From contig OZ024743.1 of assembly GCA_964016885.1 (NCBI GenBank), forward strand, positions 300,266,001 through 300,330,000: a stretch of DNA of 64,000 nucleotides, written 5' to 3'. Below, piece by piece: positions 3,200 through 13,920 of this stretch (the first letter of the stretch is position 1; the number at the start of each line of letters is the position of its first letter). The notes under the pieces were generated by a model. The model was not told where the DNA came from. It ran no database searches and saw nothing but the letters and a program-made list of their open reading frames with translations. Position numbers and translations under genes: made by a program. Source of the DNA: Eledone cirrhosa. Taxonomy: Eukaryota.

Positions 3200-3618
3200 A
3201 GTATTTGAAAGTTGCAAAGTTCGTGTGCATGTAGTTCGGGCAGTGATCAGAGAGTTTGTTCAGTAGCGGGCCCTTGGCGAAAAAAATTTCGTAGCTCTCT
3301 GAGATACAAAGGTCGCAGACCTATGGTCCTCCGTTGTAAGAGCACGCTTCTCTAGTGTTTTCCATTTAAGCGTGAAAGGGGTGGAGTTCCTTTTGAGGTC
3401 CCAAACATAGGAGTCGAGTGTTGCATGGTTTGATTTGTCCGCTCTTCTGAAGGAGTGGGTATGGGCATACCAACGGATATTAAAATTATTGGAAGTCATG
3501 CCGATGTAAGTTTTTTTGTTATTGCAATCATCGGTGTCTGACTGACATCGCATTTGTATACGATGTCATTTGTGAGGCATTTGTTTTCAAGTGGGCATGC
3601 GTATCCCTCCGGCCACAT
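3200..3618 (-). pseudogene. Penelope-like GIY-YIG endonuclease C-terminal fragment
   Basis: Across frameshifts it reads CPLENKCLTNDIVYKC...KTYIGMTSNNFNIRWYAH...SYVWDLK...FTLKW. Confidence 0.85.
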
Positions 3619-3985
3619 TGTTGAACGTATATACTTACCTTATGTATATTAACGGATGAGTAGCCCAATTTGCATATCGAGTGGGTTAACCGGCCGGGTG
3701 CACCGAAAACAACAAACAGAAAAAAATGAAGCGAAATGTTATTTCCCACTCTTAGTACGGCTGGTACTTAAATATAAGTATGTACACGTACATACATATA
3801 TGTATACAGACGTACAGTAGTATGTATATATATATATACATACATGCACACACATATATATATATGTACGTATGGATTCACCGAACATTTATTATAATGC
3901 TCGGTGTGTTTGTAAACAAACATCCCGTATTAAGCCGTAGTGTCCAGCAACCATCGTTGCTCATTTATTCAACACTGACTAAGGA

Positions 3986-4028
3986 ACGCTGTACTAGTTT
4001 CAAGCTTATTAGCTATCGTTAGCAACGT
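3986..4028 (-). ncRNA. Hammerhead ribozyme family A, core mutated (CUAACGA), probably inactive
   Basis: Reverse complement: acgttg CTAACGA tagctaataagctt GAAA ctag TA cagcgt. Confidence 0.7.
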
Positions 4029-4594
4029 ATACATTCCTGCCAGATTGTTGAACGTATATACTTACCTAATGCATATTAACGGCTGAGTAGCCCAATTTGC
4101 ATATCAAGTGGGTTAATCGGCCGGGTGCACCGAAAATGATAAACGGAAAAAATGAAACGAAATTTCATTTCCACTTTTAGTACGGCTGTTACTTAAATAT
4201 AAGTATGTACACGTACATACATATATGTATACAGACGTTCAGTAGTATGTATATACATATACATGCATACATATATATATGTACGTATGGATTCACCGAA
4301 CATGTATTATAATGTTCGGTGTGTTTGTAAACAAACATTCCGTATTAAGCCGTAGTGTCCAGCAAACATCGTTGCTCGTTTGTTCAACACTATACATATA
4401 TGTATGTACGTGTACATACTTATATTTAAGTAACAGCCGTACTAAGAGTGGGAAATGAAATTTCGTTTCATTTTTTCCGTTTATCGTTTTCAGTGCACCC
4501 GGCCGATTAACCCACTCGATATGAAAATTTGGATACTTAGCCGTTAATATGCATAAGGTAAGTATATACGTTCAACAATCTGGCAGGAAGGTAT

Positions 4595-4637
4595 ACGTTG
4601 CTGACGACAGCTAATAAGCTTGAAACTAGTACAGCGT
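4595..4637 (+). ncRNA. Minimal type-I hammerhead ribozyme, family A
   Basis: acgttg CTGACGA cagct-aata-agctt GAAA ctag TA cagcgt: 6-bp stem I, 4-bp stem II, palindromic minimal stem III of the type described for PLE HHRs. Confidence 0.9.
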
Positions 4638-4886
4638 TCCTTTGTCAGTGTTGAACAAACAAGCAACGATGGTTGCTGGACACTACGGCTTAATACGGGA
4701 TGTTTGTTTACAAACACACCGAGCATTATAATAAATGTTCTATGAATCCATACGTACATATATATATGTGTGTATGTATGGATATATATATATATACATA
4801 CTACTGTACGTCTGTATACATATATGTATGTACGTGTACATAGTTATATATATATATATATATATATATATATATATATATATATA

Positions 4887-5095
4887 TAGGAACGATTAGG
4901 ACGCCGACGGCTGAGCTCAAGCCGTTTCGACGGCTAATTCTGGACAGAATATACAAAGTCCAGAATTAGCCGTTGAAACGGCTTGAGCTCAGCCGTCGTG
5001 GTCCAACTCGTTCCTATTACCCACTCTACTACCCTAAGTATTGAGTACTTCAGTGCGTTATGACCCATCTGGTTCCTTACCACATTTCCTTGGTT
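4887..5095. mobile_element. Fold-back palindrome (4887-5016) plus pLTR-like tail, between (TA)n tracts
   Basis: Arms of about 60 bp around position ~4950. The tail 5011-5095 is homologous to 34011-34095. Confidence 0.75.
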
Positions 5096-5450
5096 ATATA
5101 TATATATATATATATATATATATATATATATATATATATATATATATATATATATATATATATACTATAAAGTATGTCTACAGAATCATTTGATAATATA
5201 TATATATACACCATTTCCCCTCCCAATTTGCATGATTAACCACACAAAAAATCAATTAAACCAGGCTATAAGATTAAAAGGCACCTATGAAGAAATAGTA
5301 GATAAATAAACGACACCAATCTATTCGCGACCAACCGCTATAGAATATTTACCCAACACGTGGAACTCGATTAAATATACCGTCAATCATACACAATTAA
5401 GTTTAAAATTAAAGTTAGAAGAAAAAATGCATATACACATACCAGGATTA

Positions 5451-5522
5451 CATTTCTACCTTTCGCTTTTCGAAATATCCTATTAAGGATAAAATCTCGA
5501 GCTTCGAACTCATCAGGAAACA
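5451..5522 (-). ncRNA. Degenerate hammerhead ribozyme candidate
   Basis: Reverse complement: tgtttc CTGATGA gttcgaa...ttcgaaaagc GAAA gg TA gaaatg. Stem I pairs, but stem II is imperfect and stem III is too short. Confidence 0.4.
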
Positions 5523-11800: not shown

Positions 11801-11852
11801 ATATATATATATATATATATATATATATATATATATATATATATATATATAT

Positions 11853-12066
11853 AGTAATAATAATAAATTTGAAGACTAAAATCCAAGAGGGCTCGATAAG
11901 GATAAATATAAATATATATCAAATATATAAGAACCGTAGAGCAAATATTTATTAAAATAACAGATTAAAGTTAAGCAAATAATCGCTGCTTTCACGCTTA
12001 ACGGGATCTTCTGAAACTCAGAAGATTCCGTTAAGGGTGAAAGCAGCGATTCTTTGCTTAAATTTT
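11853..12066. mobile_element. pLTR 3' end of the 42.6-46.8 kb PLE family, with a fold-back hairpin through its HHR (family C)
   Basis: Near-identical to 42601-42761. The hairpin is centred at ~12015, and both sides abut (TA)n. Confidence 0.8.
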
Positions 12067-12380
12067 AAAGAATATATATATATATATATATATATATATA
12101 TATATATATATATATATATAAACCGAAAAAATGAAACGAAATTTCATTTCCCACTCTTAATACGGCTGTTACTTAAATACAGAGTATGTACACGTACATA
12201 CATATAAGTATACAGACGTACAATAGTATGTATATATATATATACATGCACACATATATATGTATGTATGGATTCACCGAATATTTATTATAATGCTTGT
12301 GTGTTTGTAAAAAAACATCCCGTATTAAGCCGTAGAGTCTAGCAACAATCGTTGCTCGTTTGTTTAACACTGACAAAGGA

Positions 12381-12423
12381 ACGCTGTACTAGTTTCAAGC
12401 TTATTAACTATCGTCAGCAACGT
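12381..12423 (-). ncRNA. Hammerhead ribozyme family A
   Basis: Reverse complement: acgttg CTGACGA tagttaataagctt GAAA ctag TA cagcgt. Confidence 0.85.
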
Positions 12424-12794
12424 ATTCCTTCCTGCCAGATTGTTGAACGTATATACTTACCTTATGCATATTAACGGCTGAGTACCCTAATTTGCATGTC
12501 GAGTGCGTTAATCGGCCGGGTGCACCGAAAACGATAAACGGAAAAAATAAAACGAAATTACTTGTCCCGCTCTTAGTACGGCTGTTACTTAAATATAAGT
12601 ATGTAAACGTACATACAAATATGTATACAGACGTACAGTAGTATGTATATACATACATGCACATATATATATATGTACGTATGGATTCACCGAACATTTA
12701 TTATAATGCTCGGTGTGTTTGTAAACAAACATCCCGTATTAAGCCGTAGTGTCTAGCAACCATTGTTGCTCATTTGTTCAACACTGACAAAGGA

Positions 12795-12837
12795 ACGCTG
12801 TACTAGTTTCAAGCTTATTAGCTATCGTCAGCAACGT
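12795..12837 (-). ncRNA. Hammerhead ribozyme family A
   Basis: Reverse complement: acgttg CTGACGA tagctaataagctt GAAA ctag TA cagcgt. Confidence 0.9.
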
Positions 12838-13295
12838 ATACCTTCCTGCCAGATTGTTGAAACTATATAAGTGTGTACACGTACATACATATATGTATAG
12901 AGACGTACAGCGTTCCTTTGTCAGTGTTGAACAAACGAGCAACGATGGTTGCTAGACACTACGGCTTAATACGAGATGTTTGTTTACAAACACACCCGTG
13001 CATTATAATAAATGTTCGGTGAATCCATACTTACATATATATATATGTGTGTGCATGTATGTATATATATATACACACTACTGAACGTATGTATACATAT
13101 ATGTATGTACGTGTACATACTTATATTTATGTGACAGCCGTACTAAGAGTGGGAAATGACATTTCGTTTCATTTTTTCCGTTTATCGTTTTCGTTGCACC
13201 CGGCCGATTAACACACTCGATATGCAAATTGGGCTACTCAGCCGTTAATATGCATAAGGTAAGTATATACGTTCAACAATCTGGCAAAAAGGTAT

Positions 13296-13338
13296 ACGTT
13301 GCTGACGATAGCTAATAAGACTGAAACTAGTACAGCGT
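13296..13338 (+). ncRNA. Hammerhead ribozyme family A (stem II damaged)
   Basis: acgttg CTGACGA tagctaataagact GAAA ctag TA cagcgt. Confidence 0.75.
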
Positions 13339-13920
13339 TCCTTTGTCAGTGTTGAACAAACGAGCAACGATGGTTGCTAGAAACTACGGCTTAATACGGG
13401 ATGTTTGTTACAAACACACCGAGCATTATATTAAATGTTCGGTGAATCCATACGTACATAAATATATGTGTGCATGTATATATATATATATATATATATA
13501 TATACATTCTACTGTACGTCTGTATACATATATGTATGTACGTGTACATACTTATATATATATATATATATATATATATATGAATATATATATATGTGCG
13601 TGTGTGTGTGTGTGTGTGTGTGAGTCCCACTTTCTATCGGCGGTAACCGCAGTAAGTAAGGTACACAATAACATTAGATGAGTGTAAACACCCAATTTCC
13701 TATGGAAGTAGAACTATCCTTTCTTTCCAATAAACGAGTTCCAGCCCTGTAGAAGCCATTTCTATACACTACTATACTCTTCTTATCATAAATTGTATAT
13801 AACATACACAGACATACGCACATATACACATATGTGTATACAAACATATATATATATATATATATATATATATATATATATATATATATATATATATATA
13901 TATATATATATATAAATGAA

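Follow-up and report, generated by a model that had tools for sequence, protein, structure and literature searches.

Non-coding retrozymes that carry hammerhead ribozymes are known from metazoan genomes, with unit sizes of 150-450 bp (PMC7229834) or 51-972 bp (Li et al., bioRxiv 10.64898/2026.07.22.740005), and both sources describe them as derivatives of the pseudo-long terminal repeats (pLTRs) of Penelope-like elements (PLEs). The link between the two kinds of element consists so far, in these same accounts, of shared ribozymes, co-occurrence and pLTR similarity, mainly in Xenopus. Among PLEs, the Hydra clade is recognised by the protein motifs LRWRA/LRWIA, DKT, CxCX5C and CxxC/CxH, and it inserts in (TA)n (PMC8557442). 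The signature of a PLE insertion is a partial tandem, an inverted 5′-truncated copy and a tail of 30-40 bp (PMC8557442), head-to-head being the commonest orientation of the inserts (PMC3846280), and the tail reflects internal initiation by the reverse transcriptase (RT) (Frangieh et al., PMC11167929). Minimal hammerheads of Schistosoma occur as opposite-strand pairs 100-700 bp apart (PMC4209133), and 235 Rfam hammerhead matches are reported from the giant squid genome (PMC6962438). Here we describe a hammerhead-bearing repeat of about 420 bp that forms two clusters in 64,000 nucleotides of the octopod Eledone cirrhosa (assembly GCA_964016885.1, contig OZ024743.1, positions 300,266,001 to 300,330,000 of the forward strand; this whole stretch is called the window). 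A literature search over titles and abstract beginnings returned no description of this family or of cephalopod retrozymes.

We favour, with a probability of roughly 0.75, the view that the unit is a non-autonomous non-LTR (long terminal repeat) retrozyme derived from the terminal region of a Hydra-clade PLE and moved by the RT/GIY-YIG protein of such an element. The evidence lies in a defined unit with a recurring junction, a ribozyme motif, a head-to-head layout, a tail, (TA)n flanks and the absence of coding. A non-autonomous element of retrozyme size had been proposed in the initial annotation of this DNA, and the full units, which measure 416-430 bp, agree with both published size ranges.

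Two head-to-head clusters of a 420-bp repeat

Self-BLAST of the 64-kb window and a blastn map on one native unit resolved nine pieces of the repeat in two clusters, 3600/3617-4845 and 12118-13555. The full units are 416, 423, 425 and 430 bp long, and the difference in length resides in an internal TA/TG block. Offsets within the unit were counted from its start at 4423; on this scale the ribozyme core lies at 179 and the cut at 210, and the unit ends at about 422. The initial annotation had located the two clusters to within about 20 bp and had given them an identical tandem-then-inverted layout. The layouts are indeed alike, with the arms head-to-head in both, but arm lengths and ribozyme counts differ between the clusters: cluster 1 has a left arm of 1.85 units with one (mutant) ribozyme and a right arm of 1.08 units, and cluster 2 a left arm of 1.8 units with two ribozymes and a right arm of 1.5 units. 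The parts of the clusters and their flanks are as follows.

3170..3616, minus strand: GIY-YIG endonuclease remnant of a Hydra-clade PLE, frameshifted, fused to cluster 1
3617..4391, minus strand: cluster 1 left arm; offsets 224-422, full unit 4199-3775, then offset 1 to about 165 (158-174), as placed by the blastn map, alignment and piece lengths
4391..4845, plus strand: cluster 1 right arm; tail of about 33 nt (4391-4422), full unit 4423-4845, canonical 3′ end beside (TA)n
4846..4888: (TA)n target flank, right of cluster 1
12072..12120: (TA)n target flank, left of cluster 2
12118..12869, minus strand: cluster 2 left arm; offsets 140-422, full unit 12595-12180, offsets 1-61, ending in (TA)n
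12865..12910, minus strand: tail copy at the centre of cluster 2; 46 nt of the 3′ tail of the unit, with TATATA and GTACAG microhomology joints
12905..13555, plus strand: cluster 2 right arm; offsets 206-422, then full unit 13124-13553 with (TA)n at its end
13556..13595: (TA)n target flank, right of cluster 2

A single head-to-tail junction between units recurs five times internally, once in a locally altered form, and it is also where the right arms of both clusters terminate beside (TA)n. The (TA)n abuts three of the four outer cluster ends, the fourth (cluster 1 left) being fused to the PLE remnant, and a target-site duplication is unreadable at both clusters because the flanks are themselves (TA)n. 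The outer end of the cluster 2 left arm falls at an internal microhomology (TTAT versus (TA)n), the central joints of both clusters show microhomologies of 1-6 nt, and the right arm of cluster 2 begins within a 6-nt microhomology that spans the ribozyme cut (offsets 206-211). The 33-nt and 46-nt tails at the cluster centres are tails of the kind found in PLE insertions. According to the blastn map, the arms exceed the length of the unit and cross the ribozyme cut sites.

The clusters have no open reading frame (ORF) of their own, as had been annotated: the longest ORFs starting with ATG encode 80 and 97 amino acids of low complexity, and blastx of the unit against 150 PLE-like proteins gave a best E value of 0.31. 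A single ORF with RT and GIY-YIG endonuclease between repeats, the mark of an autonomous PLE, is absent from both clusters. Matches from tblastx that might have pointed to coding remnants in the unit were rejected as simple-repeat noise.

Copies are 93.4% identical within clusters and 93.3% between them, each piece differs from the majority sequence by 2.4-6.4%, and one site separates the two clusters (3 versus 4 copies). To judge from these sequences, the copies are probably decaying neutrally, and the two clusters appear to have been inserted independently from near-identical templates. An origin of one cluster from the other by segmental duplication was rejected, since their junctions differ and their flanks are unrelated.

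These figures also bear on an origin in which RNA plays no part. A solo pLTR would have become a minisatellite by unequal crossing-over, its arms would have been inverted by DNA rearrangement, and the ribozyme would be a passenger. Local tandem amplification once a PLE end has become independent is indeed proposed by Li et al. (bioRxiv 10.64898/2026.07.22.740005), and the copies drift without covariation. However, tandem neighbours are no more alike than distant copies, the clusters have different central junctions as well as unrelated flanks, the right arms end at one base beside (TA)n, and the same head-to-head structure is seen in other, unrelated families of the window; we regard this origin as improbable. 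The inverted and tandem structure could also be an artefact of assembly (fold-back or collapsed repeats), considering that the window is repeat-rich with a gap of 200 N and that such structures trouble assemblies (Craig et al., PMC8557442). Fold-back reads would be near-identical, whereas the arms differ by 3-12% with independent substitutions and indels, which makes an artefact hardly credible.

The hammerhead motif and its predicted folds

A 36-nt ribozyme pattern allowing up to 3 mismatches gave exactly 5 matches in the window and none in 100 shuffles, and an exact scan of bacterial and archaeal genomes with this pattern returned 0 loci. A general hammerhead descriptor with a strict core matched 8 times in the window (3 of these in the 420-bp family) and not once in 100 dinucleotide shuffles; it missed two copies of the family, that at 13302 on helix II and that at 4022 on the core (G5A). 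Positions follow the standard hammerhead numbering. Five copies with the palindrome ACUAGU had been reported by the initial annotation. The palindrome, which constitutes helix III, stands within GAA-ACUAGU-A^C in all five, but one core carries G5A and helix II of the copy at 13302 is disturbed; the core CUGANGA...GAAA...UH is intact in four of the five.

3986..4028, minus strand: hammerhead copy with core CUAACGA (G5A)
4595..4637, plus strand: type I hammerhead, core intact; predicted cut between 4631 and 4632
12381..12423, minus strand: type I hammerhead, core intact, G-U in helix II, poorly predicted fold; predicted cut 12387/12386
12795..12837, minus strand: type I hammerhead, nearest the majority sequence; predicted cut between 12801 and 12800
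13296..13338, plus strand: type I hammerhead, core intact, helix II disturbed; predicted cut between 13332 and 13333

We take the G5A change to be inactivating, and the copy at 3986-4028 is then probably inactive. Helix I consists of ACGUUG/CAGCGU (6 bp) and 18 further pairs, which together would form a long rod. After the core CUGACGA comes U-U and then helix II, which has 4 bp and the loop AAUA, so that U-U stands in place of the usual G10.1-C11.1 pair at the base of helix II. Pairing across the copies is 100% in proximal helix I, 95.6% in its 18 distal pairs and 90% in helix II. The ribozymes had been annotated as minimal, a label that is not supported in this form: their anatomy is nearer to the canonical metazoan type I (Cervera) and to the Hydra-clade form than to the minimal hammerhead. 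What supports the assignment as a putative ribozyme is the motif, together with the helices and the likeness to PLE hammerheads in the literature. MicroRNA-family matches of Rfam were set aside, as they reflect hairpins and TA repeats.

The folding of helix III was evaluated within one molecule and between two. Within one molecule its pairing probability was 0 and the hairpin came to +6.0 kcal/mol; the ACUAGU/ACUAGU duplex between two ribozymes came to -4.8 kcal/mol. In these models, helix III would thus form only between two ribozymes. This agrees with the earlier proposal that tandem copies supply the dimer partner, but in cis the proposal applies to one of the four arms only, the left arm of cluster 2 (12118-12869), none of the arms in cluster 1 having two tandem ribozymes. 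The second ribozyme of that arm is predicted to fold poorly (helix probabilities 0.27 and 0.21). For the native tandem transcript 12340-12869, the double hammerhead reached -162.0 kcal/mol, two separate open ribozymes -161.9 kcal/mol and the free minimum -166.6 kcal/mol; lying within 4.6 kcal/mol of that minimum, the double hammerhead is predicted to be accessible, not favoured. For a transcript through either whole cluster, the predicted fold is a hairpin in which long-range pairs take up 866-1176 nt and 6-7 of the 7 core bases are paired. Read-through RNA is thus predicted to bury every core in a duplex of about 600 bp, and the ribozymes would be silenced by the inversion, not aided.

Cleavage at two successive sites would release the following RNA.

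12387..12800, minus strand: predicted cut-to-cut monomer or circle, 414 nt, 68% paired

For the predicted 414-nt circle the folding energy is -125 kcal/mol, and its shuffles average -90 kcal/mol (z = -5.8, 60 shuffles). When the microsatellite block was removed, leaving 320 nt, z values of -3.9, -4.0, -3.9 and -2.0 were obtained for the four full units, and the mean z of 29 control windows from the window was -0.8.

The initial annotation had further assumed that minimal PLE-type hammerheads cleave efficiently as dimers, and here the published activities are mixed. A minimal PLE ribozyme is described as having low activity even as dimers (PMC4209133, PMC6765202), dimers of axolotl retrozymes cleave much better than monomers (PMC7229834), one of nine Xenopus dimers was active (Li et al., bioRxiv 10.64898/2026.07.22.740005), and cleavage by the ribozyme of an anole PLE is protein-assisted and dispensable for insertion (PMC11167929). 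Ligation at the cut site would recreate the genomic ribozyme sequence, so that plain back-junction reads would be uninformative.

Penelope-like relatives and a proposed route of insertion

The window holds at least seven PLE remnants, in which RT precedes a GIY-YIG endonuclease and in which LRWRA/LRWIA, DKT, CNCRIRVNC (CxCX5C) and CxxC/CxH are found. One of them, the endonuclease remnant 3170-3616, is joined without spacer to the left end of cluster 1, a feature absent from the initial annotation. It matches PF01541 with an E value of 9e-4 (below the curated cut-off); a protein search with this remnant gave no candidate, and it was placed instead by local blastx (E 3e-15). The fusion joint is an imperfect microhomology of about 18 nt (about 3599-3616) with the endonuclease linker of Hydra-clade elements, a level reached by 7 of 7258 PLE 20-mers. 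The joint bases read R-R-D-T and then, across the frameshift, C-P-L, as in the linker of the blastx match P0031, and thus look PLE-derived.

This proximity lends some weight to another explanation, in which the unit is the 3′ pLTR of an autonomous Hydra-clade PLE with a tandem end and the clusters are 5′-truncated, inverted insertions of that element. Autonomous PLEs show this layout, tail and (TA)n target (PMC8557442, PMC3846280), the hammerheads of the Hydra clade lie a hundred to a few hundred nucleotides from the 3′ end, as in the unit (PMC8557442), and the inverted layout is shared by a near-full Hydra remnant at 42689-46812. The remnant fused to cluster 1, however, is positioned downstream of the units, and its non-coding 3′ flank, which runs to a simple repeat at about 2990, is unrelated to the unit; none of the window's PLE remnants terminates in the 420-bp unit. 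Furthermore, the 3′ end of a pLTR continues into an ORF, whereas the unit returns to its own start at all five junctions, and the arms need at least two junctions in a row. We therefore consider this explanation unlikely. Since retrozymes are themselves thought to be pLTR-derived, it differs from the retrozyme reading mainly in whether the unit now moves alone. The tandem-plus-inverted layout is the standard structure of PLE insertions and is not special to the 420-bp repeat.

If the unit is a retrozyme, a source array would be transcribed into multimeric RNA, in which two ribozymes could swap helix I partners and pair their ACUAGU palindromes in a double hammerhead. This structure would cut at GUA^C, slowly or with protein help, and free monomers of about 414 nt, which a host ligase could circularise. 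The PLE protein would cut (TA)n and prime cDNA at the CUUAUAU junction, a fixed position in the RNA, giving identical right-arm ends, and a second cDNA would start from the other target end at an internal microhomology, giving variable left-arm ends. On a circle or an uncut multimer, each cDNA would extend beyond the length of one unit, and the two would be joined at microhomologies of 1-6 nt into a head-to-head insert. We thus infer that cDNA synthesis was primed at both ends of the target, on an RNA exceeding one unit in length, in the manner of the twin-priming model. Self-priming on an antisense template is the published alternative (PMC3846280), and these clusters cannot tell the two apart. 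As the arms cross intact cut sites, the template would have been either an uncut multimer or a circle closed again by ligation. Of the arms, one begins at the ribozyme cut and another 16 nt 3′ of it. This hints that cleaved RNA was sometimes copied, although pausing of the RT at the long helix I rod explains it equally. In a second hammerhead family of the window, with a 628-bp unit, truncation at the cut site was not seen, its left arm starting at offset 41 and its cut lying at 361.

Several points weigh against the retrozyme reading. Cleavage, the RNA and the circle are predictions from sequence and fold models. None of the 28 pairs shows a two-sided change (5 copies, 96% identical), and selection on the ribozyme is undetectable, with 5 substitutions at 224 positions in the ribozyme versus 74 at 2012 elsewhere; function is therefore not shown by these copies. 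At the gathering score, Rfam gave no hammerhead family in the window, nor was there a hammerhead among the 111 matches at E≤10 over 12000-13700, which lowers the case for membership of an Rfam family and leaves the motif call as it is. In folding strength the unit is equalled by two of the 29 control windows (z -3.7 and -4.3). No autonomous element ending in the 420-bp unit lies within the 64 kb, and in the one PLE tested in vitro insertion was independent of ribozyme cleavage (PMC11167929). The clustering of arm ends at the cut was noticed post hoc (P about 0.06 and 0.013). Homogeneity within clusters, as a sign of a circular template, gave no signal, and because identity within clusters equals that between them, circle and multimer templates are indistinguishable.

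A lead that concerns the same arm ends is a candidate intron around the ribozyme (slashes mark splice boundaries).

13259..13349, plus strand: candidate GT-AG intron, 91 nt, AAG/GTAAGT ... TTCCTTTGTCAG/, enclosing the ribozyme

The sole GTRAG of the unit lies at offset 136 in AAG/GTAAGT, a perfect donor by the splice-site consensus. It has 4 matches in the window, all in the 420-bp family (shuffle mean 1.59, with 8 of 100 shuffles reaching 4), and when the unit itself was shuffled, 136 of 20000 sequences had a donor of this kind. The acceptor at offset 226 (TTCCTTTGTCAG/) is the most pyrimidine-rich of the 6 in the unit and is buried in helix I. Three of the four arm 5′ ends fall in the candidate intron interval: one just after the donor, one at the cut and one at the acceptor (P 0.04). 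PLEs are described as retaining introns next to the ribozyme (PMC4209133). Together these patterns would fit a splicing-gated retrozyme whose arm ends record RNA ends and for which cluster 1 is the fossil of a template switch, a combination that we hold to be doubtful. If it were true, splicing would yield a ribozyme-free RNA of about 330 nt and intron retention a self-cleaving, circle-forming template; at cluster 1, one Hydra-clade RT would have switched, as it copied, from its own mRNA to the retrozyme RNA, and the fusion would then be direct evidence of the partner. Against it, the donor and fusion patterns were both noticed post hoc, helix I requires the pyrimidine tract in any case, and no similar intron around a ribozyme was found in the 8 other regions checked. 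Microhomology-mediated deletion is common in PLEs (PMC3846280), and a later deletion of this kind would explain the fusion at cluster 1 as well as a template switch.

Other repeats of the window and comparison with known systems

The window is AT-rich, of animal type, and full of (TA)n and mobile-element debris. The near-full, frameshifted Hydra-clade PLE mentioned above (about 43700-45835, minus strand, within 42689-46812) has a 3′ region of 1 kb, with an inverted copy at its 5′ end; this 3′ region contains a hammerhead-like motif with the core CAGAUGA/CAGAAGA (position 4 is A in most copies). Further pieces of the element lie at 13852-14285, 25870-26030 and 63526-64000, and a piece at 11850-12070, which adjoins cluster 2, has a palindromic joint at the core. 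A second Hydra-clade remnant (53265-58648, minus strand) has a 1.6-kb inverted 5′-truncated copy and a long hammerhead-like motif near 58490. More PLE fragments are found at 11-897, 41314-41853 and 61950-62500, of which that at 41314 has a different linker/endonuclease pattern (CNDRRC...CCHH-like) and may belong to another clade.

The 628-bp hammerhead family (35047-35597, minus strand, and 38608-40492, plus strand) comprises three tandem units that are 98.6-100% alike and an inverted copy of 89% identity, head-to-head, and it ends in (TA)n; it has a long helix III (monomer-type) and a U-U flank. The junction TTATATTTA is common to this family and the 420-bp unit. The centre of the 628-bp insert is taken up, within (TA)n, by a 593-bp tandem array (35690-38515, about 4.8 copies, 99.1-99.7% identity), which is very young or homogenised; a hammerhead-like stretch on its minus strand falls outside the descriptor, the core being atypical (CUGAUAGA). 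Seven of 12 palindromic inserts chosen from the self-BLAST, both clusters included, have hammerhead-like cores on both strands. Palindromic inserts at 4886-5017, 8948-9140, 10699-11820, 22308-22407, 22540-22930 and 63141-63323 lie mostly beside (TA)n, those at 8948 and 22540 having hammerhead-like cores on both arms. A tandem-free hammerhead candidate is located at 24284 (plus strand), with relatives at 23082 and 47378.

Two larger elements complete the window. A Pif1 helicase remnant (15857-19866, Pfam), with replication-initiator-like frames upstream on the minus strand, is presumably a decayed Helitron. A long interspersed nuclear element (48161-52817) has an uninterrupted endonuclease/RT stretch of 860 amino acids (ORF2, 48.1-50.7 kb) and an upstream zinc-finger-like frame; an 18-bp minisatellite in it adjoins the 200-N gap. 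Among the 120 relatives listed for its protein, the highest identity is 56%, with Argonauta hians, the one entry that carries an organism name; this agrees weakly with an octopod host.

The closest described systems share different parts of this anatomy. As in metazoan non-LTR retrozymes (PMC7229834; bioRxiv 10.64898/2026.07.22.740005), the unit is a non-coding tandem unit some hundreds of base pairs long with one type I hammerhead each, low GC and a strongly self-paired predicted circle, and it is found alongside PLEs. Axolotl HHR_Amex2 has the same U-U mismatch where helix II begins (PMC7229834). Unlike those retrozymes, which are described as tandem arrays, the 420-bp repeat has arms of 1-2 units placed head-to-head with a PLE tail, sits in (TA)n without a readable target-site duplication, and has a helix III without a tetraloop.

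With Hydra-clade PLEs, including Hydra-1_Obim (PMC8557442), the repeat has in common the (TA)n target, a ribozyme near the 3′ end, and a partial tandem with inverted 5′ copy and tail; it differs from them in the absence of an RT/endonuclease ORF, and the ribozyme of Hydra-1_Obim is of different sequence. Hydra-clade hammerheads (PMC8557442) also carry CUGANGAU...UGAA and ACU...AGU. In a by-eye count over File S2 of that work, 14 of 25 Hydra-family hammerheads have U-U at the base of helix II, as in the unit, and 16 of 25 have an ACU-nnn-AGU helix III; unlike these 16, the unit is without the 3-nt loop and so cannot close helix III alone. Its putative ribozyme thus resembles a Hydra-clade PLE hammerhead with loop III removed. 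The 10-nt ribozyme motifs were found in no matching context in the supplement of Craig et al. (PMC8557442).

Minimal PLE hammerheads (PMC4209133) likewise have a palindromic helix III region that needs a dimer and an extra nucleotide after A9, but helix II of the unit has 4 bp and not 7-8, its helix I has 6 bp and a long distal extension, and the G10.1-C11.1 pair is missing. Non-autonomous Chlamys elements such as MRC1 (PMC8557442) are comparable as PLE derivatives with multicopy head-to-tail insertions; they differ in being green algal, of another PLE clade and mostly without canonical hammerheads.

As decaying transposon copies, these two loci are of modest biological interest in themselves. 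To the link between retrozymes and PLEs they add insertion anatomy, with a protein-free unit that has the tail, inversion, (TA)n target and ribozyme style of the Hydra clade, and they name that clade as a candidate mobiliser in an invertebrate. The loop-less helix III offers a clean test case for an obligate dimer. The 420-bp repeat belongs to a known kind of element, either a non-LTR retrozyme or a non-autonomous Hydra-type PLE.

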